A DNA stretch of 64,000 nucleotides from Gammaproteobacteria bacterium (GTDB lineage Bacteria; Pseudomonadota; Gammaproteobacteria; Ga0077536), in assembly GCA_050186725.1 (NCBI GenBank), contig JBFWYG010000008.1, positions 32,899-96,898 on the forward strand, in the 5' to 3' direction. This document shows, one piece after another, positions 1 to 21,545 of the stretch. Each line of letters opens with the position of its first letter. Position 1 is the first letter of the stretch. Below the pieces are notes generated by a model. It saw only the letters and a list, made by a program, of their open reading frames with translations, did no database searches and was not told where the DNA came from. Both the position numbers and the translations under genes were made by a program.

Positions 1-731
1 GCGTTCTCGACCTTGGGCGCGACCAGCAGCACGCGCCCGCCCTTCGCGCTCGTGATGCGCGCGCCCTTCCGCACTTCGACGGCGCCGGCCGCGCCGCTAT
101 GGTCGAAAGCTGGTTCTGGCGTGGGGTTGCCGGCCGCGTCGGTCTTGCGGATGGCGGCGGTCAGTCCACCGGCGAGGAATTCCTGGTCGTCCCACAGCTT
201 CAGGGTGGAGGCCGTCAGCGAATGGGTGTCGACCTTCGCCTGCGGCCCGAACACGATGCCGTTCTGGTTGATGACATAGACTTCGCCCGGCGCCTTCACC
301 TGGCCGTTGATGAAGCTCTGCGGATTGGTCTTGCCGAGCACGCGGTTCAGCGCCACGGCGGCGCTGCCGAATTTCTGTTCGAATTCGACCTTGTAGCCGG
401 CGCCGACGTCGAAGCTCTCCCAGTTGTAGAGTTCGCGCTGGCGCGGCTGGCGAATGGTCATCGTGCGGCCGTTGACCGCGCGGGCCGGCGCGCCGGGCCC
501 GGGCGCCGCCCAACTGTTCACGCCGCCCGTGCAGTTGCCCGACGCGCACACGCGCGGCAGCTCACGACCCTGCGGTGGATTCTGCGCCGCCACCGGCCGC
601 ACCAAGAGGGAGATCGCGAGCGAGAGCGGGAGCAGGCGCAGGGGCGCGGGGAGACGAAGCAAGGGCGCGGTCCTCGAGGACGGGGCGGTCGACCGTGGCG
701 GTCGCGGTCGCGCGCATTGTCTTGGCGCCAT
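1..731 (-). CDS. Partial (5' end in window, extends past left edge) two-partner-secretion exoprotein TpsA / filamentous haemagglutinin N-terminal (TPS) domain protein
   Basis: Minus-strand frame from ATG 731..729 is open to base 1 (checked by hand; not in the ORF track because it has no stop in the window). Translation: MAPRQCARPRPPRSTAPSSRTAPLLRLPAPLRLLPLSLAISLLVRPVAAQNPPQGREL...RQRELYNWESFDVGAGYKVEFEQKFGSAAVALNRVLGKTNPQSFINGQVKAPGEVYVINQNGIVFGPQAKVDTHSLTASTL. There is a long signal peptide. SAAVALNRV, YVINQNGIVFG and LTASTL match the conserved TPS-domain (PF05860-type) motifs of TpsA/FhaB/HxuA-like proteins. Confidence 0.6.
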   Translation of the reverse strand, partial: MAPRQCARPRPPRSTAPSSRTAPLLRLPAPLRLLPLSLAISLLVRPVAAQNPPQGRELPRVCASGNCTGGVNSWAAPGPGAPARAVNGRTMTIRQPRQRELYNWESFDVGAGYKVEFEQKFGSAAVALNRVLGKTNPQSFINGQVKAPGEVYVINQNGIVFGPQAKVDTHSLTASTLKLWDDQEFLAGGLTAAIRKTDAAGNPTPEPAFDHSGAAGAVEVRKGARITSAKGGRVLLVAPKVEN

Positions 732-849
732 GTTAAGGATTCGTGACAGCGGGGCGGTCGCTGGCGCGACGTCGACCATTCGAGCAAGACCGGCACGCCT
801 CGGCGCCGCGCCGTGGCGTGGCGTTGCGCGACCATGCCTTGCCGCTCGG

Positions 850-1290
850 ATCCGTCAGGCCTGCGAACCTCGTCATGCAGCGGCTCCGTCGACCGCCCAT
901 GGACCCTCGCTTGCGCGAGGATGACGGTGTAGTGAGGATGATGTGGACCGTTACGGACTGCCGTTTCGCCCAGGTCCGTCATGCCTGCGTAAGCAGGCAT
1001 CCATCAGCCTCGCCAACCGCCCATGCACCCTCGCTTGCTCGAGGGTGACGGTGTCTAAGCGAAGTCGCAGACCGTTCTGCCGCCAATAAGTACCCCAGGC
1101 CCGTCATTCCTGCGAAAGCAGGAATCCATCGGCCTCGCCGACCGCCAATGGACCCTCGCTTGCACCCGAGGGTGAAGGTGTAGTGAGGATGATGTAGAGC
1201 GCGACGGACTGCCGTGTCGTCCCGATCCGTCATGCCTGCGAAAGCAGGCATCCATCGGTCTCCACGGCCGCACCGACCTCGCCGTCAGAA
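850..1290. repeat. Three tandem ~130-bp direct repeats (plus a degenerate partial copy), each with two hairpins (CCCTCGCTTGC-N-GAGGG and GTCATGCCTGCG-AAA/TAA-GCAGGCATCC)
   Basis: Direct repeat units seen by eye at ~897-1019, ~1020-1143 and ~1144-1290. The ORF-track peptides PAFAGMTD and PAYAGMTD on both strands are translation artefacts of these repeats. Lies between the tpsA-like start (731) and gspC. Confidence 0.7.
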
Positions 1291-1355
1291 CGCGGGTGGG
1301 AATCACCACACCAGCCCACGCGAAGGGATGTGCTATAACGCGCGCAATCCCGTCA

Positions 1356-2186
1356 ATGGAACCCGATGTGTCGCAAGCCGGATGGCCACCGCGCGCGGTG
1401 CTCATGCCCACCCTGGCGCTGGCGCTCACGAGCGTCCTCGCGCTGAGCTTGGTGGTGCGTACCACGCTCGCGGTGCGCGGCCTGCGCGCCGATGCGCCAC
1501 GGGTCACGGCCGTGGGAGCCGCCACGGCTACTGCGCCGCCGAGCGCCACGCCCGATCTGCGCAGCCTCGCCGCGAGCGATCTGTTCGGTCATTTCGATCC
1601 GGCCAGTGACGAGGCGACCACCCGCGCGAGCGACGCGCCCACCAAGCAAGCGCCGGCGCCGCTCGCGTCGGACACTCCGCCCGACGCGCTGCCCGAGGCG
1701 AGTCTCGCGCTCAGCCTGCAGGGCATCTTGTTCGACGACAATCCGGCCGACCGCCGCGCCATCATCGGCGGCGACGGTCCGCGTATCGAGGCCCGTCGCG
1801 TCGGCGACGACCTGCGCGGCGCGACCATCAAGTTCATCGAGGCGCGCCGCGTGGTGGTCGAACAGGACGGCGAGCTGAAGGCACTGCTGCTGAAGGATCC
1901 CAAGCTCGGCGCGGGCGCCGCGCCAGGCCAGGCCGGCCTGCCGCAGGGCGCCTCCGATCCCTATGGCGCGATGCGCCGTGGCGCGGTGCCGCCCGCCTCT
2001 GCCCAGGCCTTCCAGCCGCTGCCCACCGACTACACCGAGCCCGAACCCGAGCCCGAACCCGAGCCGCCCGAGGAACTGCCCATGGACGATACGGCGACCT
2101 ATGACTACGCGCCCGAGGTCTCCGACCCCGCCGCGCTCGACAGCGAGGATCCCGCCGCCGGCATGGACGACGGCAGCTACCAATGA
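1356..2186 (+). CDS. gspC: Type II secretion system protein GspC-like (TM segment + HR domain, no PDZ; Pro/Glu-rich acidic C-terminus)
   Basis: Segment LSLQGILFDDNPADRRAIIGGDGPRIEARRVGDDLRGATIKFIEARRVVVEQDGELKALLL matches the GspC/XcpP homology-region (HR) pattern (LxGxxxxxD..RxAII...G.....VGD.I.GA.I..I...RV.LE..G....L.L). N-terminal hydrophobic segment MPTLALALTSVLALSLVV. Immediately upstream of gspD. Start chosen at the internal Met (residue 21 of the track ORF). Confidence 0.55.
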   Translation: MEPDVSQAGWPPRAVLMPTLALALTSVLALSLVVRTTLAVRGLRADAPRVTAVGAATATAPPSATPDLRSLAASDLFGHFDPASDEATTRASDAPTKQAPAPLASDTPPDALPEASLALSLQGILFDDNPADRRAIIGGDGPRIEARRVGDDLRGATIKFIEARRVVVEQDGELKALLLKDPKLGAGAAPGQAGLPQGASDPYGAMRRGAVPPASAQAFQPLPTDYTEPEPEPEPEPPEELPMDDTATYDYAPEVSDPAALDSEDPAAGMDDGSYQ

Positions 2187-2293
2187 AGCGCATCATCGCA
2201 GCGCGCGCGGCGGGCCGCCGGCCCGGGCGGCCTGGCCCGTTCTGCTAACATCGCGGGCCAGTCGCGCCTCGCACTCCGGAGTATTCGAGCATC

Positions 2294-4312
2294 GTGCCTT
2301 CGACCCCAAGACGCCCGCGCGCCCTCGCGGCCCTGCTCTCCCTGGTGCTGCTCTCCTGCCTCGCGTTGTGCTCGCCGGCGTGGGCCGAGGACGACGACGC
2401 TGAAGGCTTGGTGCCGAAGGACGACGGCACCTTCACCCTGAACCTGCGCGACGCCGACGTGCGCGCCTTCATCGCCGCCATCGCAGACGTGACCCACAAG
2501 AACTTCGTGGTGGACCCGCGGGTGAAGGGCAACGTCACGGTGATCTCCGCCGCGCCCACCAGTCCCGACGCGCTCTACGACGTGTTCCTGTCGGTCTTGA
2601 AGGTGCACGGCTTCGCCGCCATTCCGAGCGGCAACGTGATCAAGATCGTGCCCGACGCGACCGCCAAGCAGGAGGGTCAGGACACCCCGGCAACCTATAT
2701 CGCGCGTGACAACGACGCGCTGGTGACCGCCGTCATTCCGGTCAAGCACGTCAGCGCCCCCGAACTGGTGGCGGTGCTGCGTCCACTGCTGCCCCAGGAG
2801 GCTCACCTGGCCGGCCTCGCCGCCAGCAACGTGCTGGTGATCGCCGATTCAGGCGTCAACGTGCGACGCATGATGCGCCTGGTGGCGGACCTCGACACCG
2901 CCACGCCCAAGTCGACCGAGATCTACGAACTCAAGCACGCCGACGCCGAGGAAGTGGTGAAGGTGATGAACGCGCTGTCGGGCGACCCGGCGCGGCCGCA
3001 GGCGCCCGGCCTGCCGGGCCCGCAGTTCGTGGCCTACGCGCGGACCAACACCGTGCTGATGCTCGCGCCGCCCGGCGCGTTGCAGGGCTATCGACGGCTG
3101 ATCGAGGCGCTGGACGTCCCCGATCGGGGTCCCGAGGCGGTGGAAGTGGTGCCGCTGCGATTCGCGACCGCGGCGGATCTCGTGCCGGTGCTGCAGGGCG
3201 TGCTGAGCGGTGAGTCCATGCCCCAGCAGAGCTTCGACATGGGCGGCGGCCAGAGCAACGACAGCAGCGGCGGGACCGGGCGGCGCAACGCCGTGCGCAA
3301 TGCCGGTTTCGGCGGCATGGAGCCGCTCCCGGGCGGCGCCAACATCCAGGCCGATGAAGCCACCAACACCCTCATCCTGCAGGCGCCGCCGCGCCAGATG
3401 AAGATGCTGCGCGACGTCATCTCCAAGCTCGACGTGCGGCGCAACCAGGTGCTGGTCGAAGGCATCATCGCCGAACTCACCACTCAGCGTGGCACCGAAC
3501 TCGGCATCCAGTGGCGCACCTCGGATACCGTCGACGGCGTCGCCACCGGTACGCGCTTTCCCGGCAACATCTCGGGCGGTATCGACGACGCGGTCACCAG
3601 CGGCCAGCTCGCGCTGTTGAACGGCTTCACGCTCGGCTACCTGCGCAACGGTGACATTCGCGCGCTGCTGCGCGCCTTCGCCGGTGACCGCTACACCAAC
3701 GTGCTGTCCACGCCCACGCTCATGACCCTCGACAACGCCGAGGCCGAGATCGTGGTCGGCCAGAACGTGCCCTTCGTCACCGGCCAGTTCACCAACCAGA
3801 CGACCACGCCCGACAGTCCATTCCAGACCATCGAGCGCAAGGACGTCGGCATCCTGTTGAAGGTCAAGCCGCAGATCAACGACGGAGGCACCGTGACGCT
3901 GGAACTCGAGCAGGAGGTGTCGAGCGTCGACTCCTCCACCGCCGGCGCTGACCTCATCACCAACAAGCGCGCGATCAAGACCACGGTGCTGGTGGACGAC
4001 AGTGACATCGTGGTGCTCGGCGGGCTCATTCAGAACAATCTCACTGAGAACGCGCAGAAGGTGCCGTGGGTGGGTGACATTCCGATCCTGGGCCACCTGT
4101 TCAAGAACACCCGCGACGATCACACCAAGACCAACCTGATGGTGTTCCTGCGCCCGACCATCATCACCGACCGCGAGGGCAACCACAGCACCGCGGTCGC
4201 GCGCTACGATTTCATCCGCTCGCGCCAGGACGCCGAGGAACCGCGGCGTCGCGGCAACCTGATCCACGCTCCCGCGCCGCGCCTGCCGGCGCCGGACGGT
4301 CTGCTGGAATGA
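2294..4312 (+). CDS. gspD: Type II secretion system secretin GspD
   Basis: 672 aa; signal peptide, N0/N1 domains (NVIKIVP, VKHVSAPELVAVLRPLL) and C-terminal secretin domain (VVLGGLIQN, LMVFLRPTII). GTG start. The stop overlaps the gspE ATG (ATGA). Confidence 0.9.
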   Translation: MPSTPRRPRALAALLSLVLLSCLALCSPAWAEDDDAEGLVPKDDGTFTLNLRDADVRAFIAAIADVTHKNFVVDPRVKGNVTVISAAPTSPDALYDVFLSVLKVHGFAAIPSGNVIKIVPDATAKQEGQDTPATYIARDNDALVTAVIPVKHVSAPELVAVLRPLLPQEAHLAGLAASNVLVIADSGVNVRRMMRLVADLDTATPKSTEIYELKHADAEEVVKVMNALSGDPARPQAPGLPGPQFVAYARTNTVLMLAPPGALQGYRRLIEALDVPDRGPEAVEVVPLRFATAADLVPVLQGVLSGESMPQQSFDMGGGQSNDSSGGTGRRNAVRNAGFGGMEPLPGGANIQADEATNTLILQAPPRQMKMLRDVISKLDVRRNQVLVEGIIAELTTQRGTELGIQWRTSDTVDGVATGTRFPGNISGGIDDAVTSGQLALLNGFTLGYLRNGDIRALLRAFAGDRYTNVLSTPTLMTLDNAEAEIVVGQNVPFVTGQFTNQTTTPDSPFQTIERKDVGILLKVKPQINDGGTVTLELEQEVSSVDSSTAGADLITNKRAIKTTVLVDDSDIVVLGGLIQNNLTENAQKVPWVGDIPILGHLFKNTRDDHTKTNLMVFLRPTIITDREGNHSTAVARYDFIRSRQDAEEPRRRGNLIHAPAPRLPAPDGLLE

Positions 4313-10075: not shown

Positions 10076-10668
10076 CAGCCCGGGCCCTCGAGCACGCGCC
10101 GCAGGACACGCGAGTCGGCGAAGCGCAGGCGGAATTCCAGCCCGCGCGGCAGGTCATCGGCCACCACTTCGTCCTCGTCCCGCGGCCAGAACGGTGTCCA
10201 GGTCTCGCCGTCGAAGAAGCGCAGTTCCAGCGCGCCGACATCCTTCAGCAGGCGCTGGCTGCGAAAACCGGTGTCGGGCGTGCGATCGAGCACGTCCCAC
10301 ACGTCGCGGTACAGCGCGCCGTCCTGCAGCCGGTAGCGCACGCGGCGCAGCGCCGGCTGGCCATCGTCCACCAGGTCGCTGACGCGCCGCGTGAAGGTCA
10401 GCAGTTCTCCGCGCAGGCCGGCGCGGAGCGCCGGCTCGGATTCGCCGAGCGCGTCGCGCACGCCGCGCGGCGCCAGCGCGCCAAGGTCCTGCTCCATCAC
10501 GGTCACGGCGTGACGCAGCGCGGCCTGGCGCGCGCTGCTCGCGGCGAGCCCGGCGTCGAGCGACATCACCTGGCGCAGGCCGCCGTAGGACAAGGTCGCG
10601 AGCACCGCGAAGATCGCCACCGCGACCAGCAGTTCGAGCAGGGTGAAGCCACGCGTCCGGCGCGTCAT
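10075..10668 (-). CDS. gspJ: Type II secretion minor pseudopilin GspJ
   Basis: 197 aa starting MTRRTRGFTLLELLVAVAIFAVLA (prepilin leader + G|FTLLE cleavage/methylation motif). ATG 10668..10666 overlaps the gspI stop (ATGA). Confidence 0.75.
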   Translation of the reverse strand: MTRRTRGFTLLELLVAVAIFAVLATLSYGGLRQVMSLDAGLAASSARQAALRHAVTVMEQDLGALAPRGVRDALGESEPALRAGLRGELLTFTRRVSDLVDDGQPALRRVRYRLQDGALYRDVWDVLDRTPDTGFRSQRLLKDVGALELRFFDGETWTPFWPRDEDEVVADDLPRGLEFRLRFADSRVLRRVLEGPG

Positions 10669-11093
10669 TCCGCGCTCCGCGTCTCGCGCTCGACGTACAG
10701 CCGCGCGAGCGGCGTGGCGCTGCGCGGGCCGTCGCGTACGTCGACCGTGATCCCGTAGCGCGGCGGCGGCGTGACCTCGGGCGCGTCGGGATCCTCGCGC
10801 AGCGACTCGCGAGGCGGCGGTGGCAATTCGCGCACCACGAGGCGCACCTGCAGCCGCCGCCCGAGGATCTCCTCCACACCCTCGCGCTTGTCCGCCACCA
10901 GCCCTCGGTGCTCGAGCAGGTACTGCGCGAGCACGTTGCTCGCCGCCCACTCCGCCACCTGGCGGCTTTCGAGATGGGCCTGGCTCGCGATCGCCTCGCG
11001 CACCAGCCCGAGCACGCCGCCCAGCACGGTCGCGACCAGCGCCAGGGCCACCAGCACTTCCAGCAGGGTGAAGCCCGCGGCGCGGCGCATCAC
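10665..11093 (-). CDS. gspI: Type II secretion minor pseudopilin GspI
   Basis: 142 aa; MMRRAAGFTLLEVLVALALVATVL prepilin-type N-terminus. Confidence 0.75.
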   Translation of the reverse strand: MMRRAAGFTLLEVLVALALVATVLGGVLGLVREAIASQAHLESRQVAEWAASNVLAQYLLEHRGLVADKREGVEEILGRRLQVRLVVRELPPPPRESLREDPDAPEVTPPPRYGITVDVRDGPRSATPLARLYVERETRSAE

Positions 11094-11602
11094 GACGACG
11101 GTCCGACCCAGTCGGCGACGAACATGCCGTCCAGGTCGTCGCGAAAGCGGTAGTGCTCGCGCTCACCGTGCGCGCCGAGCATCACCGCGCCGATGCGCGT
11201 CTCGCCATCGGGCAGGCACACCACCGCCGGCCGCGTCCCACCGGCGCGCGCCAGCGCGATCTCGAGGCCGATGGGCAGTCGGTGCAGGTCCGGCTCGCCG
11301 CGCGGCGTGAGCCGTGGCTGCCAACGGCCTCGGTAGTGTTCGAAGCCATACGCGTCGCCGCGCAGCCGTATGCCGACCGGCGCACCGGACAGCACCGCGC
11401 TGTCACGGCATTCCTCCAGCGCCAGGACGAACTGCCGCGCTTCGGCGGCGAGCGCCTCACCGCGGCGGTCGGGGAGCGCCAGGCGCACCACCACCAGCAG
11501 CACGCCGATGATGGCGACCACCACCATCACCTCCAGCAGGGTGAAGCCGCGCGGCGTGCGGCCGCCCGCGCTATTGCGTGGTCCAGTTGCCGATGTCGGC
11601 AT
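11090..11602 (-). CDS. gspH: Type II secretion minor pseudopilin GspH (start uncertain)
   Basis: Contains GRTPRGFTLLEVMVVVAIIGVLLVV prepilin motif. The first in-frame ATG downstream of the motif-free N-terminal extension is Met32 of the track ORF (11602), giving an unusually long 19-aa leader and a 32-nt overlap with the gspG 3' end. There is no ATG/GTG/TTG between the gspG stop and the GF cleavage site. Confidence 0.6.
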   Translation of the reverse strand: MPTSATGPRNSAGGRTPRGFTLLEVMVVVAIIGVLLVVVRLALPDRRGEALAAEARQFVLALEECRDSAVLSGAPVGIRLRGDAYGFEHYRGRWQPRLTPRGEPDLHRLPIGLEIALARAGGTRPAVVCLPDGETRIGAVMLGAHGEREHYRFRDDLDGMFVADWVGPSS

Positions 11603-12026
11603 TGAACCCCTCGCCGCCGGGTATGCCGTCGGCACCATGGGAGTAGAGATCGAAATTGTTGTGCTGCCCGGGGTAGAGGTACTGGTAGTCACCACCCCAC
11701 GGATCCTTGGGGACTGCCTCGATGTAGCCGTCGTCCTTGTAGCGCGCGCCGGGCGGCAGGCCAGCGGGCTTGCGCACCAGGGCTTCCAGGCCCTGCTCGG
11801 TGGTCGGATAGGTGAGGTTGTCGAGCTTGAACAGGTCGAGCGCCGCGCCGATGGCGCGCAGGTCCTGCTGGGCGCGCACCACGCGCGCCTCGTCCGGACG
11901 GCTCATGACGCGCGGCACGACGATCGCTGCGAGGATGCCGAGGATCACCACCACCACCATCACTTCGATGAGCGTGAAGCCCGGCGAGAAGCGATGGCGC
12001 GGCGGCATGCGACGGGTACGGCCCAC
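11571..12026 (-). CDS. gspG: Type II secretion major pseudopilin GspG
   Basis: 151 aa; GFTLIEVMVVVVILGILAAIVVP followed by a typical GspG globular domain (DNLTYPTTEQGLEAL..., KDPWGGDYQY). Confidence 0.9.
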   Translation of the reverse strand: MGRTRRMPPRHRFSPGFTLIEVMVVVVILGILAAIVVPRVMSRPDEARVVRAQQDLRAIGAALDLFKLDNLTYPTTEQGLEALVRKPAGLPPGARYKDDGYIEAVPKDPWGGDYQYLYPGQHNNFDLYSHGADGIPGGEGFNADIGNWTTQ

Positions 12027-12224
12027 GGACTCTTCCTCTCACGCTCTACGATGGCCGGCTAGTGTAACCGTGGCTCATGCAAGCGTCATGACCGCGCGCT
12101 GTGCCGCATGTCACGCCGCCGCGCGGCGGCGGCGTGCTGGAACTTCACGCTTTCGATCCAGTCGTTCCAGCCAGTAGAATCGATCCGTGGCCGGCCCTCG
12201 CCGCCGGATGCGAAAGTAGGCAAG

Positions 12225-13205
12225 GTGGACATCAGAACCGAGACCCGCGCGGCCATAGTGCAGCTGCGTGACTACGTGACACGCCGCATCCTCGGCCAGG
12301 ACCACCTGGTGGAGCGCATGCTGGTGGCGCTGCTCGCCGACGGCCACCTGCTGGTGGAGGGCGCGCCGGGCCTGGCCAAGACTCGCGCCATCAAGGTGCT
12401 GTCGGAAGGCATCGAAGGCGAGTTCCATCGCATCCAGTTCACGCCCGATCTGCTGCCGGCCGACCTGACCGGCACCGAGATCTACCGTCCGCAGGACGGC
12501 AGCTTCACCTTTCAGCAGGGCCCGCTGTTCCACAACCTGGTGCTGGCCGACGAAGTGAACCGCGCGCCGGCCAAGGTGCAGTCGGCGCTCCTCGAAGCCA
12601 TGGCCGAACGCCAGATCACCATCGGCCGCGTGTCCTACCCGCTGCCGGAACTCTTCATGGTGATGGCGACCCAGAACCCGCTGGAGCACGAAGGCACCTA
12701 CCCCTTGCCCGAGGCCCAGCTCGATCGCTTCCTGCTGCACATCCTGATCGACTATCCGCGCCACGAGGACGAGAAGCGCATCCTGCACCTCGCCCGCCAG
12801 GAAGCCGCCAGCAGCGCGCCCCACGCGCTGTCGGCCTCGCCGGTGGTGGACCAGGCGCAGATCTTCGCGGCGCGCCGCGAGGTGCTCGATGTCTACATGA
12901 GCGAAGACGTCGAGAACTACCTGATGGAAATCGTGTTCGCGACCCGCGCGCCGTCCGCCTACGGCAGCGATCTCGCAGGCTGGCTGGCCTACGGCGGCAG
13001 TCCGCGCGCCACCATCGCCATCGACCGCGCGGCGCGCGCGCACGCCTGGCTGCGCGGCCAGGACTTCGTCTGCCCGGCCGACGTGCAGGACGTGGCGCGC
13101 GACGCGCTGCGCCACCGCGTGATCCTGAACTACGAAGCGGCCGCCGACGGCGTCACCCCGGACAGATTCATCGGCCAGCTGCTGGAGCGCATCCCGGTAC
13201 CCTGA
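12225..13205 (+). CDS. MoxR-family AAA+ ATPase
   Basis: Walker A GAPGLAKT, Walker B LLADEVNRAPAKVQSALLEAMAE, sensor ATQNP. Likely GTG start at 12225 (VGKVDIRTE...); the track ORF starts at 12108 but its first ~39 residues are not MoxR-like. Confidence 0.85.
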   Translation: MDIRTETRAAIVQLRDYVTRRILGQDHLVERMLVALLADGHLLVEGAPGLAKTRAIKVLSEGIEGEFHRIQFTPDLLPADLTGTEIYRPQDGSFTFQQGPLFHNLVLADEVNRAPAKVQSALLEAMAERQITIGRVSYPLPELFMVMATQNPLEHEGTYPLPEAQLDRFLLHILIDYPRHEDEKRILHLARQEAASSAPHALSASPVVDQAQIFAARREVLDVYMSEDVENYLMEIVFATRAPSAYGSDLAGWLAYGGSPRATIAIDRAARAHAWLRGQDFVCPADVQDVARDALRHRVILNYEAAADGVTPDRFIGQLLERIPVP

Positions 13206-13227
13206 ACGGGGCCGGTCACCGCGTCGC

Positions 13228-14178
13228 ATGCGCGCCGCCCACACTGCCCCACCCGCGCCTGCTGCCGCCGGCCGCGAACGCGTCGAACCGCAGCTTCGCG
13301 AGTTGCTGGCGCTGGCCGCCCAGGCCGGCGCGCTGCCGCCCTGGACCCGCGCCATCCGCAACCGCAGCAGCGGCCCCTTCCTGTCGCGCTTCCGCGGTCG
13401 TGGCATGGAGTACGACGAATCCCGCCCCTACCTGCCGGGCGACGACATCCGTCAGCTCGACTGGCGCGTCACCGCGCGCACCGGCCGGCCGCACACCAAG
13501 TTGTTCCGCGAGGAGCGCGAGCGCCCGGTGCTCCTGTGCGTGGATTTCCGCGGCCCGATGTTCTTCGCCACCCGCGGCGTGTTCAAGGTCGTGCAGGCGG
13601 CGCGCGCCGCGGCGCTGCTCGCCTGGCGCGCGCAGCAGAACGGCGACCGCCTGGGCGGGCTCCTGTTCGCCGACGACGAACACCACGAGCTGCCGCCGCG
13701 GCGGGGTCGCGCGGCGACGCTGCGCTGGCTGAAACTCCTGGCCGACAGCGCGCCGCGGCTGCGTACCGCGCCGCCGGTCGCCACGCCGGCCCCGCTGGCG
13801 GCCACCTTCACGCGTCTCGCGCGGGTCGCCAAGCCCGGCACGCTGATCTTCGTGATCAGTGACTTTCGCGGCTTCGACGATGCCGCGCGCGCCGCGCTGG
13901 CGCGCCTCGGCCAGCATGCGGACCTGGGCCTCATCCTGGTCCACGATGCCCTCGAAGCGGCGTTTCCGATGCTGGACGAAGCGGCCACCATCGCGAGCGG
14001 CGAGCGGCGCCTGCGCCTGGCCGGCGTGGGCGCGAGCCAGCGTGAGCGCTATGCCGCGCAGTTCGAGGCGCGGGTCGCGACGGTGCGCGGGCTGTGCCGC
14101 GAGCAGGGCCTGCTGTTCGCGAGTCTCGACACCGGCGCCGATCCGGTCGCGGCGCTGATGCGCATGTTCGGCGGCTGA
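13228..14178 (+). CDS. DUF58 (vWA-like) protein, MoxR partner
   Basis: YLPGDDIRQLDWRVTARTGRPHTKLFREERERPVLLCVDFRGPMFF is the characteristic DUF58 core; immediately follows moxR. Confidence 0.8.
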   Translation: MRAAHTAPPAPAAAGRERVEPQLRELLALAAQAGALPPWTRAIRNRSSGPFLSRFRGRGMEYDESRPYLPGDDIRQLDWRVTARTGRPHTKLFREERERPVLLCVDFRGPMFFATRGVFKVVQAARAAALLAWRAQQNGDRLGGLLFADDEHHELPPRRGRAATLRWLKLLADSAPRLRTAPPVATPAPLAATFTRLARVAKPGTLIFVISDFRGFDDAARAALARLGQHADLGLILVHDALEAAFPMLDEAATIASGERRLRLAGVGASQRERYAAQFEARVATVRGLCREQGLLFASLDTGADPVAALMRMFGG

Positions 14179-14182
14179 GTCC

Positions 14183-14689
14183 ATGGCGGCCCCGACGCTC
14201 GAGCTGCGCGACATCCACCTGCCCGCCCCGGTGTCGTGGTGGCCGCTCGCCCCAGGCTGGTGGCTGCTGCTGATCGCCGTGCTGCTGGCCGCGCTCGGCC
14301 TCGTGCTGTGGCGGCGCGGCGCGCCGACGCGCCGCCTGCGTCGCGCCGCGCTGGCCGAACTCGCCGCCATCGAAGCGGCCTACGTGACGGCCGGCGACGG
14401 CCATGCCTGCGCGGCGGCCCTGTCCCGCCTGCTGCATCGCCTCGCCGTGCTCGCACGCGGGTCGGGCGCGAGCGAGGTCGATTACGCGGCGCTCGCCGCG
14501 ACGCTCGGGGCGCTGCGCGCCGGTCCGCCGCCCGCGCCCCTCGAGCGCGTGATGACGGCCGCACCCTACTCGCCAAGCGCGGCACGCGGTCTCGCCGGCG
14601 ACGACTACCGCGCCGCGGTGAGCGCCCTGCGGCCCTGGCTCGCGCGCCTGCGCGCGCCGGCGCCCGGTGTCCCCCATGCTGCACTTTGA
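14183..14689 (+). CDS. Small membrane protein of Bat/MoxR operons (DUF4381-like)
   Basis: 168 aa, single TM (WWPLAPGWWLLLIAVLLAALGLVLW), sits between the DUF58 gene and batA as in Bat operons. The family assignment is from memory and is tentative. Confidence 0.45.
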   Translation: MAAPTLELRDIHLPAPVSWWPLAPGWWLLLIAVLLAALGLVLWRRGAPTRRLRRAALAELAAIEAAYVTAGDGHACAAALSRLLHRLAVLARGSGASEVDYAALAATLGALRAGPPPAPLERVMTAAPYSPSAARGLAGDDYRAAVSALRPWLARLRAPAPGVPHAAL

Positions 14690-15674
14690 CTGGCCCTGGC
14701 TGTTCCTCGCGCTGCCGCTGCCGTGGCTGGCGCGGCGCCTGCTGCGCCCGGCGGGCCCGGCCGAGGGCGCGGCGCTGCGCGTGCCAGAACTGCGCGACTT
14801 CGAGGTGCTGCTGGGCGCGGGCGGCGGCAGCGAAGGCCGGCGCGCCAGCATGCTGCTCGCGAGCCTCGCCTGGCTCCTGCTGGTGACCGGCGCGGCGCGC
14901 CCGGAATGGCTTGGTGAACCGGTGGAAGTGCCGGTGAGCGGCCGCGACCTCATGCTTGCGGTCGATCTGTCGGAGAGCATGCACGAGAGCGACTTCGTGC
15001 TGAACGACGAGCCGGTGGACCGTCTCACCGCCAGCAAGGCGGTGGCGAGCAAGTTCATCGGCCGACGCGTCGGTGACCGCATCGGCCTCATCCTGTTCGC
15101 CGACCAGGCCTACCTGCAGGTGCCGCTGACCTTCGACCGCGCGACCGTGGCGCGCATGCTGGAAGAAGCGGTGATCGGCATCGCCGGGCGGCGCACCGCG
15201 CTCGGCGATGCGCTCGGCCTCGCGGTGAAGCGCCTGCGCACCCAGCAGTCCGAACACAAGGTGCTGATCCTGATGACCGACGGGCGCAACACCGCCGGCG
15301 AAGTCGACCCGCTGCGCGCCGCCGAACTCGCCAAGGAGGCGGGGCTGACGGTCTACACCGTCGGTATTGGCGCCGACGCCGCGATGCAGCGCGGCTTCTT
15401 CGGCTCGATCCGCATCAACCCGGCCAGCGATCTCGACGAGGACACCATGCGCGCCATCGCCAGGAAGACCGGCGGGCGCTATTTCCGCGCGCGCGACGCG
15501 GCGAGCTTCGAGAGCATCTACGCCGAGATCGACAAGCTCGAACCGGTCGAACATAGCGGCCAGCATTTCCGGCCAAAGACCGCGCTGTTCCACTGGCCGT
15601 TGGGCGCCGCGCTCGGGCTGTTCGCACTGCTGCTCGCGACCAGCGTGCGACAACCGCGCGCGGCGGTGGCGTGA
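14667..15674 (+). CDS. batA: BatA-like membrane vWA (von Willebrand factor A) domain protein
   Basis: N-terminal TM, vWA MIDAS (DLMLAVDLSESM, ILMTDGRNTAG, VYTVGIGAD), C-terminal TM. Confidence 0.75.
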   Translation: MSPMLHFDWPWLFLALPLPWLARRLLRPAGPAEGAALRVPELRDFEVLLGAGGGSEGRRASMLLASLAWLLLVTGAARPEWLGEPVEVPVSGRDLMLAVDLSESMHESDFVLNDEPVDRLTASKAVASKFIGRRVGDRIGLILFADQAYLQVPLTFDRATVARMLEEAVIGIAGRRTALGDALGLAVKRLRTQQSEHKVLILMTDGRNTAGEVDPLRAAELAKEAGLTVYTVGIGADAAMQRGFFGSIRINPASDLDEDTMRAIARKTGGRYFRARDAASFESIYAEIDKLEPVEHSGQHFRPKTALFHWPLGAALGLFALLLATSVRQPRAAVA

Positions 15675-17482
15675 TGGCCGAGTTCCACTTCCTGAGACCG
15701 GCCTGGTTCCTGGCCCTGCTGCCGCTGGCCGGCCTGTTGTGGTGGGCGCTGCGCGGACGCGGGCGCGGCGGCGCCTGGACGCGGGTCTGCGATCCGGGCC
15801 TGCTGCCGTTCGTGATGGAACATGGTGAGGGCGCTCACCAGGGACGCGCGGGCGGCCTGCTGGCGCTGGCCGCGGCGCTGGCCGTGACCGCGGCGGCCGG
15901 CCCCACCTGGGAACGGCTGCCGGTGCCGGTGTTTCGTGGGGAGTCGGCGCTGGTCGTGGCGCTCGACCTGTCCGCGTCGATGGACGCCGAGGACATCAAG
16001 CCCTCCAGGCTGGCGCGCGCGCGTTTCAAGGTGGCGGATCTGCTGGCGCTCCGCCGCACCGGCCAGACCGCGCTCCTGGTGTTCGCCGGCCAGGCCTTCG
16101 TGGTGACACCGCTGACCAGCGACACCGCGACCATCGCTTCGCAGCTGCAGGCGCTCGAGACCGCCATCATGCCGGTACAGGGCAGCAACCCCGCGGCGGC
16201 GCTGGAGCTGGCCGGCAAGCTGCTCACCCAGGCCGGCATGCCGCGCGGCCACGTGCTGCTGGTGACCGACGGCGGCGACGCCGATGCGCTGGCTCGGGCC
16301 CGCGAGGTGGCCGCGGGCGCGGACTACAGCGTGAGCGTGCTGGGCGTCGGCAGCGCCGACGGCGCACCGATTCCGGACAGCAACGGCGGCTTCGTCAAGG
16401 ATTCGGGCGGCGGCGTCGCGCTCGCGCGGCTGGACGGTGGTGCGCTCGCCGCCCTGGCCAGCGCCGGCGGTGGCGACTACGTGCAGGCGCGGGTCGACGA
16501 CGGTGACGTCGAAGCACTCGCCCACAGCTTCGACGAGGACCGCGCGGCCAAGGTGCGCGAACTGGACCAGCTCGCCGCGAGCCAATGGCACGAGGTCGGT
16601 CCCTGGCTGTTGCTGCCGCTGCTGCCGCTCGCCGCGCTCGGTTTTCGGCGCGGTGTGCTGGCGGTGGCCGTGGCTGTCGGCCTCGCGCTCGGCGGTCCCA
16701 CGCCGGCGCGCGCCGACTGGTGGCGCACACCAGACCAGGCCGGCCAGGCGGCCTTCGAGGCGCGCGACTACGCCGACGCGGCGCAACGCTTCGAGGATCC
16801 GGCCTGGCGCGCCGCGGCGCGCTACCGCGCGGGCGATTACGCCGCCGCCGCCAAGGGTCTCGAAGGCCGGGACGGCGCCGACGACTTCTACAACCGCGGC
16901 AACGCGCTGGCCCGCGAAGGCCAGCTCAAGGAAGCCCTGGCCGCCTACGACGAGGCCCTGAAGCGCGCCCCCGCCGACGCCGACGCGCGGCACAATCGCG
17001 AGCAGGTGCTGAAGCTGCTCGAGCAGCGCGAGCAGGACGGCAAGGACAGCGGCAAGCAGCAGCCGGGCAAGCAGGACCCGCGGCGCAAGCCGTCGCAGAG
17101 CGAGCGCGGCGATCAGCAGTTCGGCGGCGACAAGGGCGGACAGTCCGACCAGGACACCAGCGGCGCGACCAACGCCGGCGGCGGCGCCGAGTCGCGCGAG
17201 CGGCAGCACGACGAAGACCAGTCGAGCGACAGCGGGCGCGGCAAGGGCAAGGCACGCGAACGCGTGGGCAAGCCCCAGGGCGGTGACCAGGCGGAAGGCG
17301 ACGAGCAGCAGCAGGCGGCGGCCGAGGAACGCAGCGACGAGTCCGCCGCCGAACGCGCCCAGGCCACCGAGCAGTGGCTGCAGCAGATCCCCGACGACCC
17401 GTCCGGCCTGCTGCGCCGCAAGTTCGAATACCAGTACAAGCAGATGTACGGCGACGCGCCGCGCGGAGAGACCCCATGGTGA
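15671..17482 (+). CDS. batB: BatB-like vWA + TPR protein with ~130-aa charged low-complexity tail
   Basis: vWA MIDAS (ALVVALDLSASM, LLVTDGGD), TPR repeats (YNRGNALAREGQLKEALAAYDEALKRAP), then a DE/KR/Q/G-rich disordered region. Confidence 0.7.
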   Translation: MMAEFHFLRPAWFLALLPLAGLLWWALRGRGRGGAWTRVCDPGLLPFVMEHGEGAHQGRAGGLLALAAALAVTAAAGPTWERLPVPVFRGESALVVALDLSASMDAEDIKPSRLARARFKVADLLALRRTGQTALLVFAGQAFVVTPLTSDTATIASQLQALETAIMPVQGSNPAAALELAGKLLTQAGMPRGHVLLVTDGGDADALARAREVAAGADYSVSVLGVGSADGAPIPDSNGGFVKDSGGGVALARLDGGALAALASAGGGDYVQARVDDGDVEALAHSFDEDRAAKVRELDQLAASQWHEVGPWLLLPLLPLAALGFRRGVLAVAVAVGLALGGPTPARADWWRTPDQAGQAAFEARDYADAAQRFEDPAWRAAARYRAGDYAAAAKGLEGRDGADDFYNRGNALAREGQLKEALAAYDEALKRAPADADARHNREQVLKLLEQREQDGKDSGKQQPGKQDPRRKPSQSERGDQQFGGDKGGQSDQDTSGATNAGGGAESRERQHDEDQSSDSGRGKGKARERVGKPQGGDQAEGDEQQQAAAEERSDESAAERAQATEQWLQQIPDDPSGLLRRKFEYQYKQMYGDAPRGETPW

Positions 17483-19212
17483 ACTGGCTCACGCGGGTGG
17501 ACTGGCTGACGCGACTGCTGACCCTGTTCCTGGCCTGCGGCTGCCTCGCGGCGCGCGCCCAGGTGGAGCTCGAGGTGCGCCCCGATCCGGCGGTGCTGAA
17601 CCAGTCCATCGAACTGCGCTTCCGGGTGCCGGCCGTGGTCGAGGAAGCGCCGGACTTCAGTCCGCTGGCGGCGCTGTTCGACATCGTCAAGACCAGCAGC
17701 CAGTCGAGCCAGTTCGCGCTGAACGGCCGGGTCGAGCGGTCCACCACCTACGTGCTGGAAGTGATGCCCAAGCGCAGCGGCAAGGTGGTCATTCCCGCGC
17801 TGTCCTTCGGCGGCGCGCGCAGCCCGGCGCGACAGCTCGAGATTCGCGAGGAGCCGCTCGCCGGCGACGCCGGCGGCGCGCCGGACTTCATCGTCGAGGC
17901 GCTGGTATCGACCGCCACGCCCTACGTGCAGCAACAGGTGATCTACACCGTGCGGGCGCTGTTCGCGGTGCAGGTCAGCAGCCCGCGCCTGACGCCGGTC
18001 AGCGCGAGCGGCGACGCGGTCGTGAAACAGCTGGGCGACGGTCGCCAGGTCAGCGAGACCCGCGACGGCCGCAGCTACGAAGGCTTCGAGATGAAGTACG
18101 CAGTGTTCCCGCAGGCGAGCGGCACGCTGCGCCTGGCGCCGGCGGTGGTCACGGCCGAGGTGGTGGTCGGCGGACGGCGCTCGGTGTTCGATCCCTTCGC
18201 GCAGTCCTTGAGCACCCGGCGCATCGAATCCAAGCCGGTGGAACTCGAGGTGCGGCCGGTGCCCGCCGCCTTTCCCGCCGGCGCCACCTGGCTGCCGGCG
18301 CGGCGCCTGCGCCTGCACGAGGAATGGGAGCCGGACCAGAGCAGCGCCGAGGTCGGCGCACCCATCACGCGCACGGTGTTCCTGTGGGTCGACGGCCTCC
18401 TGTCCGGCCAGCTGCCGAAGCTCGCGCTGCGCGCGCCGGCGGACGTCAAGCTCTATCCGGACCAGGCTCAGACCAGCGATCAGGACACCGCCACCGGCTA
18501 TACCGCGGTGCTGCAGCAGAAGTTCGCGGTGATCGCCGCGCAGCCCGGCAAGCCGCGCTTCGATACCCTGGAAGTGCCGTGGTGGAACACCGAGACCGAC
18601 GCGCTCGAAGTCGCGCGGCTGCCGGCGCGTGAACTCGAGGTCATCGCGGCGCCGGGCGCCGCACCGTCGGCGTCACCCCCCCCCATCCCCGCGCCGGCCG
18701 AGCGCGCCGCGACCGACATCCCGGACCGCGCGCCTGCGGCGCCCGCGTCGGCGGCCGCCGCAGACTCCCCGTGGCGCGCCGTGGCCGCGGTGCTGGCGCT
18801 GGTGTGGCTGGCGACCCTGGTGCTGTGGTGGCGCAGCCGCGGCGCGCCGACCACCGTCTCGAGCGCGCGGTCCGGTGACGCCGTGCTCACACCCGCGCCA
18901 CGCGGGTCCGAGGACCTGGCCGGCGCCTGTCGCGCCAACGATGCCCGCGCGGCCTACGCCGCCTTGCTGCGCCTCGCACGCGCGCGCGGCCTCGGCACGG
19001 CGCCGCGCGCGCTGGCCGCGGGCCCTGACACGCCACTCGCGCTCGCCATCGCCGAACTCGAGCGCCAGCGCTACGGCGCCGATCCCGCGCGCTGGTCCGG
19101 CGCGCCGCTGCTCGCCGCCTGGCAGGCCGAAGGCGAGCGCAGCATGCCGCGTGGCCAGGCCGGCGCGCGCGCGGAAGCGCTGCCGCCGCTGCATCGCCTG
19201 GGCGCGGGTTGA
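17476..19212 (+). CDS. batD: BatD-like protein
   Basis: Start MVNWLTRVDWLTRLL overlaps the batB end (ATGGTGA). Signal/TM at the N-terminus and TM near the C-terminus (WRAVAAVLALVWLATLVLWW); position after batB. Confidence 0.55.
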   Translation: MVNWLTRVDWLTRLLTLFLACGCLAARAQVELEVRPDPAVLNQSIELRFRVPAVVEEAPDFSPLAALFDIVKTSSQSSQFALNGRVERSTTYVLEVMPKRSGKVVIPALSFGGARSPARQLEIREEPLAGDAGGAPDFIVEALVSTATPYVQQQVIYTVRALFAVQVSSPRLTPVSASGDAVVKQLGDGRQVSETRDGRSYEGFEMKYAVFPQASGTLRLAPAVVTAEVVVGGRRSVFDPFAQSLSTRRIESKPVELEVRPVPAAFPAGATWLPARRLRLHEEWEPDQSSAEVGAPITRTVFLWVDGLLSGQLPKLALRAPADVKLYPDQAQTSDQDTATGYTAVLQQKFAVIAAQPGKPRFDTLEVPWWNTETDALEVARLPARELEVIAAPGAAPSASPPPIPAPAERAATDIPDRAPAAPASAAAADSPWRAVAAVLALVWLATLVLWWRSRGAPTTVSSARSGDAVLTPAPRGSEDLAGACRANDARAAYAALLRLARARGLGTAPRALAAGPDTPLALAIAELERQRYGADPARWSGAPLLAAWQAEGERSMPRGQAGARAEALPPLHRLGAG

Positions 19213-19409
19213 GCGCGGCACAAACGTTCACAATCGTGAGCGTGTCGCACTTCGCAATTCATCCACCGAGTGAGTGAGTCGCGCCAACGCGCCGTCCTCG
19301 GCGCGGCACACAGGCGCTAGACTCGGCGCCAACCGCGAACCACGCCCCGCCCCGCGTCGAACGCCCCAGACCGCCCGGCACAGCGGACCGCGTGAGGAGT
19401 ACCCGCAGC

Positions 19410-21545
19410 ATGAGCGCCGCCGCGGCCGTCCTGGCCGTCGATGACAACGCCACCATCCGCAAGGCCATCTCCATGCGCCTTGGCGCGAAGGGTTTCGACG
19501 TCGTGACCGCCGCGGACGGGCCTAGCGCGCTCGCATTGATCGAGCGCCGTGCCTTCGATCTCGTGATCCTCGACCTGCAGATGCCGGAGATGCGCGGCGA
19601 GGAAGTACTGCGCCGCCTGCGCCAGCGCTACACCGCGACCCAGCTGCCGGTGATCGTGCTCGCAGCCAGCAGCGACAAGGGCGACATCCAGCGCACGCTG
19701 GCGCTCGGCGCCAATGACTACATCGTCAAGCCCGGCGACTTTCCCATCCTGCTGACCCGCATCAACACCCAGCTCACGCTGCGCGCGACCGTCTCGCGCC
19801 TGCGGACCCAGAGCGCGCTCTTGCGCGAGACGCTGGCGCTGGTGCCGAGCGGCGGCATGCTGCCGGGGGCCAAGGCCGGCCCCACCCAGCGCATTCCCTT
19901 CGACGTGCTGCACGACCACACCCCCATGACCTGCTTCGCGCTGTCGGCCGACGGTCACGTGCTGCACACCAACCACTTCGGCGCGCGCTACCTCGGCTAC
20001 GACGCGCGCGCCCTGCTCGGCCGCTCGATGCTCGACCTCTACGTGCCGGAGGATCGCGCACTGGCCCAGGAGAATCTCGCCGCGGCGCGCGACCTGCCGG
20101 GCCGCATCCACCGCTGGGACATTCGCCAGGTGAAGAAGAACGGCGAGGTGATCTGGATGCGCAACACCGCGCGCGCGGTGCGCGACGGCGGCCTGGACCT
20201 GGTGCTCCTGACCTGCGAGGACATCGACGACGCCTACCGCCTGAGCGAGTTGCTGTCCTTCCAGTCCCACCACGACGAACTGACCGGGCTCGCCAACCGC
20301 AAGAGCCTCGAGGCGCGCCTCGCGCAGGTCATCGAGTCCGCCCAGGTCGAGCACACGGTGCACGCGCTGGCGGTGTTCGACCTCGACCAGTTCAAGCTGG
20401 TGAACGACGCCGGCGGCTCGCAGGCGGGCGACGAGCTGCTGCGCCAGATCGGGCGCGTATTGAAGGACGTGGCGCGTCGGCGCGACACGGTCGCGCGCAT
20501 CGGCAGCGACGAGTTCGCCGTGCTGCTCGAGGACTGCCCGCTGCCGAACGCGCAACGCGCGGTGGAGGCGCTGCGCCGCGCGGTCGAACAGCACGTGTTC
20601 CACTGGCGCGGGCGCGACCACGCCATCACCGTCAGCGTCGGCATCGTGGCGGTGACCGAGACCAGCGACACGCCCGGCAGCCTGCTCAGCATGGCCGACA
20701 CTGCCTGCTACGCGGCCAAGGACTCGGGGCGCAACTGCGTCCACACCTGGGAGACCGACAGCCTGCCGGTGCAGCTCCGGCGCGGCGAGATGCGCTGGGC
20801 GAGCAGCATCATCCAGGCGCTGAACGACCAGCGCTTCGAACTCGACTGCCAGCCGATCTCCGCGCTGCGCGCCGGGCCCGACGGCCCGCACTACGAGGTC
20901 CTGCTGCGCATGCGCGACGAGCTCGGCGCGCGCATCAAGCCGGGCGAGTTCCTGCCCGCCGCCGAGCGTTACAACCTCGCGGCACGCATCGATCGCTGGG
21001 TGGTGGAACAGGTCTTCGAGTGGATTGCCGCGCGCCCCGGCGTGCTGGCGCGGATTGGCCAGCTGTCGATCAACCTCTCGGGCCGCTCGCTCGGCCAGAG
21101 CGAAATGCTCGGCTGCATTCTCGAGGCGCTGCGCGGCACCCACGTGCCGGCGCACAAGATCTGCTTCGAGATCACCGAGACCGCCGCGGTGGCGGATCTC
21201 GCCGGCGCCAACCAGTTCATCCGTCGCCTGAAGGAACACGGCTGCCGCTTCGCGCTCGACGACTTCGGCAACGGCTTCTCGTCGCTGGTCTATCTCAAGC
21301 AGCTGCCGGTGGACTATCTCAAGATCGACGGCGCCTTCGTGCGCGACATGGCGACCGACTCCATCGACTTCGCCATGGTGCGCTCCATCAATGACATCGG
21401 CCACCTGCTCGGCAAGCACACCGTGGCCGAGTTCGTCGAGAGCGAGACCACCATCGCGCTGCTGCGCGATCTCGGCGTGGACTACGTGCAGGGCTACGCG
21501 GTCGGGCTGCCGCGGCCGATGGTCGAGGTGCTCGGCGAGGCCTGA
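19410..21545 (+). CDS. Response-regulator receiver (REC)-PAS-GGDEF-EAL c-di-GMP turnover protein
   Basis: REC (VLAVDDNATIRKAI...DLVILDLQMPEM), PAS, GGDEF domain with degenerate A-site RIGSDEF, EAL domain with EVLLR, QLSINLSGRSL, DDFGNGFSS, KIDGAFVRDM. RBS GAGGAG just upstream of ATG 19410. Confidence 0.85.
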   Translation: MSAAAAVLAVDDNATIRKAISMRLGAKGFDVVTAADGPSALALIERRAFDLVILDLQMPEMRGEEVLRRLRQRYTATQLPVIVLAASSDKGDIQRTLALGANDYIVKPGDFPILLTRINTQLTLRATVSRLRTQSALLRETLALVPSGGMLPGAKAGPTQRIPFDVLHDHTPMTCFALSADGHVLHTNHFGARYLGYDARALLGRSMLDLYVPEDRALAQENLAAARDLPGRIHRWDIRQVKKNGEVIWMRNTARAVRDGGLDLVLLTCEDIDDAYRLSELLSFQSHHDELTGLANRKSLEARLAQVIESAQVEHTVHALAVFDLDQFKLVNDAGGSQAGDELLRQIGRVLKDVARRRDTVARIGSDEFAVLLEDCPLPNAQRAVEALRRAVEQHVFHWRGRDHAITVSVGIVAVTETSDTPGSLLSMADTACYAAKDSGRNCVHTWETDSLPVQLRRGEMRWASSIIQALNDQRFELDCQPISALRAGPDGPHYEVLLRMRDELGARIKPGEFLPAAERYNLAARIDRWVVEQVFEWIAARPGVLARIGQLSINLSGRSLGQSEMLGCILEALRGTHVPAHKICFEITETAAVADLAGANQFIRRLKEHGCRFALDDFGNGFSSLVYLKQLPVDYLKIDGAFVRDMATDSIDFAMVRSINDIGHLLGKHTVAEFVESETTIALLRDLGVDYVQGYAVGLPRPMVEVLGEA

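Follow-up and report, generated by a model that had tools for sequence, protein, structure and literature searches.

The 64,000-nt stretch of contig JBFWYG010000008.1 from an uncultured gammaproteobacterium (the window in the following) opens with the 5' part of a gene for a TpsA-type exoprotein (tpsA, 1-731, read leftward), and the intergenic region which separates this gene from the divergently transcribed type II secretion gene gspC contains an array of short hairpins at 853-1254. With a probability of roughly 80%, the former is the start of an intact giant gene and the latter a cluster of repetitive extragenic palindromes (REPs) of the CGTC-1 family, in which one REP dimer was inserted and then amplified locally. 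This reading is carried by the anatomy of the array, by the family resemblance of its hairpins, by an element that is dispersed and whose stems are structurally constrained, and by the change of copy number at a fixed locus. The array is considered here to lack any regulatory role specific to this locus. As it belongs to a catalogued family of selfish or neutral repeats, an annotation as regulatory or phase-variation element would be inappropriate. Both gene and array are real but ordinary, being of kinds that are already known, with TpsA as one more giant FhaB-like exoprotein. With this locus, the hosts of CGTC-1 (dRS3-type) REPs come to include a GC-rich lineage of environmental gammaproteobacteria, and there is a tandem cluster resembling the Neisseria intergenic mosaic elements (NIMEs) outside Neisseria and Wolbachia. 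Additionally, three orthologous arrays with different copy numbers constitute a small natural series for cluster growth and decay, and the apparent break of assemblies at the repeats is a practical point for metagenomes.

The array consists of seven hairpins of alternating orientation, one of them decayed, which corresponds to about 3.5 units with a period of ~125 bp. These hairpins are laid out as three head-to-head dimers and one singleton, with 14-17 nt inside the dimers and linkers of 48-50 nt between them (Table 1). Tandem Repeats Finder reports a period of 125 with 2.9 copies at 892-1256 (score 438), a repeat search yields three in-register 96-nt copies lying 124 and 125 nt apart, and a higher-order repeat of 251 bp within the array is 84% identical. 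The initial annotation had described three tandem repeats of ~130 bp with two hairpins each; the repeats as such are real, while their count was too low. An intact hairpin is built from CGTC, an 8-bp stem whose first base is A, a loop of 4 nt (GAAA, GTAA or GCAA) and CCA, and the two hairpins of one unit are diverged inverted copies of each other, being 72-73% complementary. For either hairpin pattern, 0 matches were obtained in 100 shuffles, and neither pattern occurs elsewhere in the window. When folded as single-stranded DNA, the intact units reached z-scores of -3.1, -3.0 and -2.8 and the decayed unit one of -1.5, with the minimum-energy and centroid folds of the dimers consisting of two local hairpins and only four outer pairs in dimer 1. 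Other classes of repeats were considered as well: a CRISPR array was rejected because the repeats alternate in orientation and the spacers measure 14-50 nt, and integron attC sites because no GTTRRRY core is present. An Rfam scan of positions 1-3000 at a permissive E-value returned only a chance miRNA match inside gspC.

Two superfamilies of REPs, tagged GTAG and CGTC, have been distinguished (Di Nocera, De Gregorio and Rocco 2013, PMC3733652). Members of CGTC-1 are defined by an unpaired CGTC tag (with TGTC and CCTC being tolerated), an 8-bp stem, a 4-nt loop and a 3-nt unpaired CCA tail. Their stems almost always carry complementary A-T at the first and second positions, and head-to-head dimers with the tags outermost represent the predominant form (PMC3733652). 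The hairpins of the window agree with this description in every point of sequence and structure. The CGTC tag is found in five of the six intact copies, the copy at 1149-1177 carrying CTTC; the stems ATGCCTGC, ATTCCTGC, ATCCTCGC and ACCCTCG(A) comprise 8 bp each with at most one mismatch; the loops are 4 nt long (GAAA, GTAA or GCAA) in five copies and 6 nt long in one degenerate copy; and the tail reads CCA in five copies and GCA in one. Likewise, the dimers are composed of a plus-strand hairpin followed by a minus-strand hairpin with starts ~47 nt apart, which matches the head-to-head geometry of CGTC-1. Next to tag, A-T-led stem, loop, tail and the arrangement in head-to-head (hetero)dimers, the extragenic location and the occurrence across very different genomes are shared with the published family (PMC3733652). 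The earlier suggestion of a MITE-like (miniature inverted-repeat transposable element) insertion thus went in the right direction, the hairpins being CGTC-tagged REPs in head-to-head dimers.

Established CGTC-1 members are dRS3 of Neisseria and RPE-6 of Rickettsia (PMC3733652). According to Bertels and Rainey, the Neisseria element (master 21-mer ATTCCCGCGCAGGCGGGAATC, 241 copies) is a REPIN, i.e. a doublet of inverted REPs, mobilised by a Group 2 REP-associated tyrosine transposase (RAYT; bioRxiv 10.1101/2021.07.10.451892). The hairpin at 1102-1128 shares 17 of 21 positions with this master sequence, and of the four differences, two compensate each other as a stem pair. Moreover, in one metagenome locus (L027) the dimer partner of a window-type hairpin is exactly of the Neisseria dRS3 sequence type. 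Because of these 17 shared positions and this mixed dimer, the hairpins of the window and those of Neisseria are regarded as variants of one family. A literature search for the exact hairpin sequence type ATTCCTGCGAAAGCAGGAAT turned up quotations of the Neisseria variants only.

Dispersal of the element was followed by an exact-match scan with the 28-mer CGTCATKCCTGCGAAAGCAGGMATCCAT, which occurs in at least 120 metagenome stretches of 35-70% G+C whose flanks are unrelated, with nothing shared around the motif. The hairpin CGTCATTCCTGCGAAAGCAGGAATCCAT is identical over 28 nt in loci L002-L121 from many samples; for a non-coding repeat, such strict conservation between genomes this different is unusual. 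Out of 110 copies, 61 have an inverted partner hairpin with RTGAC at its end within 130 nt, mostly at 10-60 nt, on the CCA side, compared to 11 out of 110 on the other side, and the stems of these partners differ yet still pair. Covariation was evaluated on 31 distinct copies, namely 26 partners picked by their flanking tags only and five copies from the window and its relative L001 (see below). In this set, 94% of the cells pair and seven of the eight stem pairs have changed on both sides, a level reached by 0 of 500 shuffles, and slid controls pair at 24-42%. The 28-mer is depleted from open frames, as long frames of this kind contain it in 44% of cases, compared to a background of 88% (loci below 55% G+C). 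Among 72,556 plasmids no exact 28-mer was detected, with one weak match on a 1.7-Mb Photobacterium replicon. In three loci (L047, 248-615; L064, 139-912; L067, 285-429), inverted hairpin copies bound a unit of ~340 nt, which is tandemly doubled in L064 and may be a larger REP-bounded element.

At the tpsA-gspC locus itself, the array is present at an identical location in three related genomes, with seven hairpins in the window, five in L001 and at least three in L081, the latter together with the same decayed remnant. L001 (JAIEQK010000011.1, 'MAG: Gammaproteobacteria bacterium') is the sole close relative found by scanning species-representative genomes, and L081 is a 1.3-kb metagenome contig (WBZT01103142.1). 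The L001 array has a period of ~127, and the remnant equivalent to 853-879 is decayed in L081 and absent from L001. Dimers and orthologous arrays have the intra-dimer spacer GCCTCGCCGACCGCC in common. When the window is compared with 120 loci, the long linkers occur nowhere but here, one linker type being specific to the window, and conserved stretches without repeats adjoin each gene outside the array. In the scenario favored here, one REP dimer would have landed in the divergent intergenic region of an ancestor of at least three sampled genomes and would then have multiplied in place by unequal recombination or slippage, with the individual hairpin copies now decaying. The spread of the element may have been mediated by a HUH tyrosine transposase acting on single-stranded hairpins, as has been proposed for REPINs.

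A more distant relative, L123, carries tpsA with ~79% nucleotide identity and no array; homology with the window ends 20 nt upstream of the start codon (window position 751). Here, the tpsA start abuts gspG-H-I-J (L123 2028-2327; homologues of window 10181-12100) and not gspC; in comparison with the window, the type II secretion block is thus either inverted as a whole or organized differently. Since L123 has tpsA without the array, the array is not needed for the presence of the gene; as the gene order of L123 also differs, it does not represent a clean empty site. Window positions 12060-12095, upstream of a MoxR-like gene, are homologous to L123 2060-2097. As to the contig ends, L081 begins inside the array and L001 begins in gspC, ~190 bp from the array, and metagenome assemblies seem to be interrupted here by the repeats. 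Within L081 (1-700), the start of tpsA is kept, followed after ~57 codons by an unrelated hydrophobic, membrane-protein-like frame; either tpsA has been deleted in that strain or the assembly is chimeric.

Comparison with other REP systems places the array close to known arrangements. Tandem mosaics of REPs reportedly became known from E. coli as bacterial interspersed mosaic elements (BIMEs) through Gilson et al. in 1991. BIMEs resemble the window array in being tandem REP mosaics of alternating orientation with two kinds of linkers, whereas they belong to the GTAG-tagged superfamily, differ in sequence and are mostly located at the 3' ends of genes. In P. fluorescens SBW25, too, REPs form tandem arrays in which two spacings alternate, these being 112/72 bp there versus ~47/78 bp in the window (PMC3116915). 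With REPINs, the array shares a unit of two inverted REPs with a short spacer (PMC3116915; bioRxiv 10.1101/2021.07.10.451892), vertical inheritance at a fixed locus and an essential absence from plasmids.

Several points weigh against an inserted and amplified CGTC-1 dimer. The family has been described mostly in alphaproteobacteria, clusters of CGTC elements are rare except in Neisseria and Wolbachia, and REPs are least often located between divergent genes (PMC3733652). The window array, in contrast, resides in an uncultured GC-rich gammaproteobacterium, is clustered in tandem and is situated between two divergent genes. It is also the only cluster in 64 kb, whereas a high copy number is normal for REP families, CGTC-1 members being dispersed in tens to thousands of mostly extragenic copies per host genome. 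The two arms of a unit are only ~72% complementary and fold as two local hairpins rather than as the one long hairpin of a REPIN. A REPIN-RAYT system includes a cognate single-copy RAYT (a Y1 HUH transposase) of the same genome that is flanked by the REP. With E. coli RayT as tblastn query, no RAYT was found in the window or in 0.68 Mb of loci, a result that is uninformative given the sampling, and a Y1_Tnp protein from locus L125 used as query against the window and all loci likewise gave nothing linked to REPs. The existence of a dedicated transposase for CGTC elements is itself disputed, as none was found by Di Nocera et al. (2013, PMC3733652), while Bertels and Rainey assign a Group 2 RAYT to the Neisseria element. 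Finally, no true empty site is available among the relatives, the array-free L123 having a different gene order.

In Neisseria, dRS3 and RS elements are reportedly combined in NIME arrays, a finding credited to Parkhill in 2000. Hence, the hairpin array might be a NIME-like recombination substrate, i.e. a hot spot for homologous or site-specific recombination that promotes exchange, rearrangement or loss of the adjacent surface-protein gene. The elements do belong to the dRS3 family and the array adjoins a surface exoprotein gene; as in NIME arrays, hairpins of the same family with interleaved spacers are syntenic, variable in copy number and placed beside a surface-protein gene (Bentley 2007, PMC1797815). 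Structural differences between the relatives also cluster here, with tpsA abutting gspG in L123 and stopping after ~57 codons in L081. The breakpoints, however, lie outside the array, since homology with L123 ends at 751, ~100 bp from the first hairpin, and the break in L081, a 1.3-kb contig that may be chimeric, is in the coding region. Furthermore, only a single array is present in 64 kb, it has seven hairpins only, and its host is not Neisseria. The window copies read ATTCCT-N8-AGGAAT or ATGCCT-N8-AGGCAT in place of the NIME dRS3 consensus ATTCCC-N8-GGGAAT, thus representing a different repeat of the same family, and its spacers (14-17 and 48-50 nt) occur at this locus only, unlike the RS elements, which are genome-wide families of ~50-150 bp. 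We therefore regard such a recombination substrate as unlikely, while noting that it can be compatible with a selfish origin. Similarly unlikely is a reading in which the array would be a functional NIME counterpart outside Neisseria that is kept beside a giant adhesin gene for promoting its recombination, rearrangement or replacement. If true, the gene order of L123 and the truncated tpsA of L081 would be footprints of array-driven recombination, and a recombinase or RAYT of this lineage would still be acting on CGTC-1 elements.

The initial annotation had proposed a phase-variable or regulator-binding promoter region, and neither proposal is borne out. In such a regulatory architecture, the array would serve as a binding site for a regulator or nucleoid protein or space the divergent tpsA and gspC promoters, with copy number tuning expression as a slow phase or rheostat variation. 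E. coli BIMEs bind IHF, gyrase and Pol I, which counts in its favor, as do the position of the array between two divergent genes, both of whose promoters must therefore be near, and the variation of copy number between close relatives. However, the intergenic region contains no homopolymer or other simple-sequence tract with units of 1-7 nt, its sole repeat period being 125 bp; a scan detected no consensus promoter in or around the array; the conserved stretches are located outside the array, beside each gene; and L123 retains tpsA without it. The occurrence of the same hairpin in at least 120 unrelated contexts of widely differing G+C content argues against a locus-specific operator. A regulatory function of this kind appears very improbable. 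Still more doubtful is an element acting at the RNA level, with the hairpins serving as stabilising or attenuating stem-loops within a long 5' leader of tpsA or gspC, similar to REPs in 3' regions. The strong constraint on the stems, GNRA-type loops included, would suit such a function, and most REPs are argued to be transcribed (Di Nocera et al. 2013, PMC3733652). Nevertheless, neither an Rfam match nor a terminator-like T tract was obtained, and the covariation is family-wide in all contexts and fits DNA hairpins equally well. REPs are, moreover, mainly found downstream of genes, whereas the array has no gene upstream of it on either strand; owing to this location between divergent genes, the hairpins are probably not part of a 3' untranslated region. 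Taken against these alternatives, a locally amplified CGTC-1 dimer without a function specific to tpsA or gspC remains the preferred explanation.

The gene beside the array starts at ATG 731, from where the minus-strand frame runs to position 1 without a stop over 243 codons; from stop to stop, the frame is open from 3 to 854. The peptides SAAVALNRV, VYVINQNGIVFG and LTASTL are all contained in its translation. The start codon is conserved in L001 and L081 and replaced by GTG at the same place in L123, and an in-frame ATG at 779 was rejected as alternative start because the orthologs do not have it. The 243-aa product matches Pfam TPS (PF05860, residues 86-191) and TIGR01901 adhes_NPXG ('filamentous hemagglutinin N-terminal domain'), both with E=1.1e-18. 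As judged by reading the translation, residues 1-49 look like a long signal peptide, with an n-region rich in Arg and Pro, a hydrophobic segment LLPLSLAISLLV and a subsequent VAA|Q. Thus, the open leftward frame, the signal peptide (from sequence reading only) and the TPS domain of the initial annotation were all recovered. When solved structures were searched with the longer N-terminus of the ortholog, the TPS domains of EtpA (E=1e-25), HMW1 and HxuA came closest (PDB 8cpk/8vba with E=1e-25, then 2odl and 4i84), and a protein search with the TpsA N-terminus matched short fragments only. Within the region encoding the signal peptide, imperfect in-frame hexanucleotide repeats are observed at 605-633 (AGAGCG, 4.8 copies) and 685-712 (GCGGTC, 4.5 copies); given their imperfect nature and a length divisible by three, they are unlikely to act as a frameshift switch.

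What lies beyond the window edge can be judged from the L001 ortholog, which covers all 243 residues with 95% amino acid identity and whose frame continues for 3,576 codons without a stop up to the end of the stored stretch. Because this frame stays open for more than 3,576 codons, the window gene is taken to be a giant TpsA gene of the FhaB/EtpA type that is cut only by the window edge and is not a pseudogene. As far as can be seen from the available sequence, tpsA thus seems neither truncated nor dead: the large exoprotein initially suspected beyond the edge is borne out by the ortholog, and the label 'truncated' holds for the window and not for the gene itself. According to Pfam, the L001 protein contains a complete TPS domain at residues 87-346 (8e-23) and the beginning of DUF3739 at residue 3548, the latter described as 'filamentous haemagglutinin family outer membrane protein', and nothing else was found in the 3,576 residues, including no passenger repeat families. 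Homologues of the last 400 residues are all C-terminal pieces bearing DUF3739. Since the best of these (P0007, 53% identical) extends 140 aa past the point where L001 is cut, the full TpsA would be ~3,700 aa long, with a C-terminus that is presumably conserved rather than variable. The contact-dependent toxin of the CdiA type considered in the initial annotation is not supported by these data. CdiA proteins are marked by a pretoxin (VENN) motif, a variable toxin at the C-terminus and a neighboring immunity gene; no pretoxin or toxin domain was detected by Pfam in the 3,576 aa of the ortholog (its last ~140 aa and the downstream gene being unseen), and a conserved DUF3739 C-terminal region, with 53% identity in a homologue, is the opposite of a variable CdiA-CT.

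The upstream neighbor of tpsA is gspC and not tpsB, in agreement with the earlier observation that no tpsB is located upstream. Also among ten large window open reading frames (ORFs) scanned with Pfam, no TpsB was found; these ORFs encode a VWA/TPR protein, BatD, a GGDEF-EAL regulator, CysS, MetK, IleS, an outer-membrane efflux protein, a DinG-like helicase, a GyrB/ParE-type subunit and a CCG-domain protein. In the loci of more distant homologues, the DUF3739 C-terminus is followed by an ORF of 116-120 aa and then by an RHS protein or an SLT/LysM protein, none of which is a TpsB. TpsA would be exported by Sec and subsequently pass the outer membrane via a TpsB partner (POTRA domains and a ShlB-type barrel) not encoded in the window, the downstream side of tpsA falling outside both the window and the L001 stretch. 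Compared with EtpA of enterotoxigenic E. coli (ETEC), HMW1, HxuA and FhaB, the protein is alike in its N-terminal signal sequence, its TPS domain and a very long passenger (seen in the L001 ortholog). It is unlike them in its DUF3739 C-terminal region, the lack of Pfam passenger repeats and of an ESPR-type extended signal motif, and an upstream side that adjoins a type II secretion operon without tpsB. In three of three loci (L125, 953-7009, as well as L126 and L127), a DUF3739 piece of a TpsA homologue precedes a 120-aa ORF and an RHS-repeat/DUF6531 protein. In L125, a gene for a 289-aa transposase-like protein (Y1_Tnp and HTH) stands in front of the DUF3739 piece, possibly interrupting the giant gene. 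L124 (3192-6221) contains a member of another, small class of TPS-domain proteins, a 364-aa protein encoded directly 3' of genes for an ECF sigma factor and a FecR-like anti-sigma protein.

Table 1 Features at the tpsA-gspC locus of the window
Position	Strand	Feature	Basis or remark
1-731	-	5' part of tpsA (243 codons), FhaB/EtpA-like exoprotein gene, cut by window edge	Frame, Pfam, TIGRFAM, L001 ortholog
159-476	-	TPS secretion domain, best-matching stretch (residues 86-191); domain runs past window edge	Pfam
585-731	-	Signal-peptide-like N-terminus (residues 1-49)	Read from translation
732-852	.	Spacer without repeats adjoining tpsA	Alignment with L001 and L081 sequence
853-879	+	Decayed CGTC-1 REP, 5' half CGTCAGGCCTGCGAA kept, 3' half lost; left member of dimer 0	In register with 977-1003
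900-926	-	CGTC-1 REP, CGTC-ATCCTCGC-GCAA-GCGAGGGT-CCA; right member of dimer 0	
977-1003	+	CGTC-1 REP, CGTC-ATGCCTGC-GTAA-GCAGGCAT-CCA; left member of head-to-head dimer 1	
1024-1050	-	CGTC-1 REP variant, CGTC-ACCCTCGA-GCAA-GCGAGGGT-GCA; right member of dimer 1	
1102-1128	+	CGTC-1 REP, commonest sequence type, CGTC-ATTCCTGC-GAAA-GCAGGAAT-CCA; left member of dimer 2	
1149-1177	-	Degenerate CGTC-1 REP, tag CTTC, loop 2 nt larger; right member of dimer 2	
1228-1254	+	CGTC-1 REP singleton, CGTC-ATGCCTGC-GAAA-GCAGGCAT-CCA	Identical copy at the same position in L001
1255-1357	.	Spacer without repeats adjoining gspC, ~92% identical to L001, includes TGCTATAAC at 1332-1340	Alignment
1358-2186	+	gspC, first gene of type II secretion cluster, transcribed away from tpsA	Pfam T2SSC, ORF list

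The intergenic region comprises 626 bp (732-1357, up to the ATG of gspC at 1358), close to the about 600 bp initially given. For gspC, GTG 1296, ATG 1358 and ATG 1404 are candidate starts. Positions ~732-815 on the tpsA side are conserved in all three array-bearing genomes. The spacer adjoining tpsA presumably holds the promoter and leader of this gene, as presumably does the one adjoining gspC for the latter. A scan of 600-1500 detected neither a sigma-70 promoter consensus nor an intrinsic terminator, and a sigma-54-like motif in the conserved tpsA-side spacer was rejected on inspection for its wrong spacing. Within the type II secretion cluster, gspC and gspD-F are encoded on the plus strand, and gspG (11571-12038) and its neighbors down to ~7211 on the minus strand; the gspG-J homologues of L123 cover window positions ~10181-11981. 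Farther along (12063-21545), a gene for a MoxR-type AAA ATPase precedes VWA/TPR and BatD-like genes, which together form a Bat-type cluster, and next comes a gene for a response-regulator-PAS-GGDEF-EAL protein.

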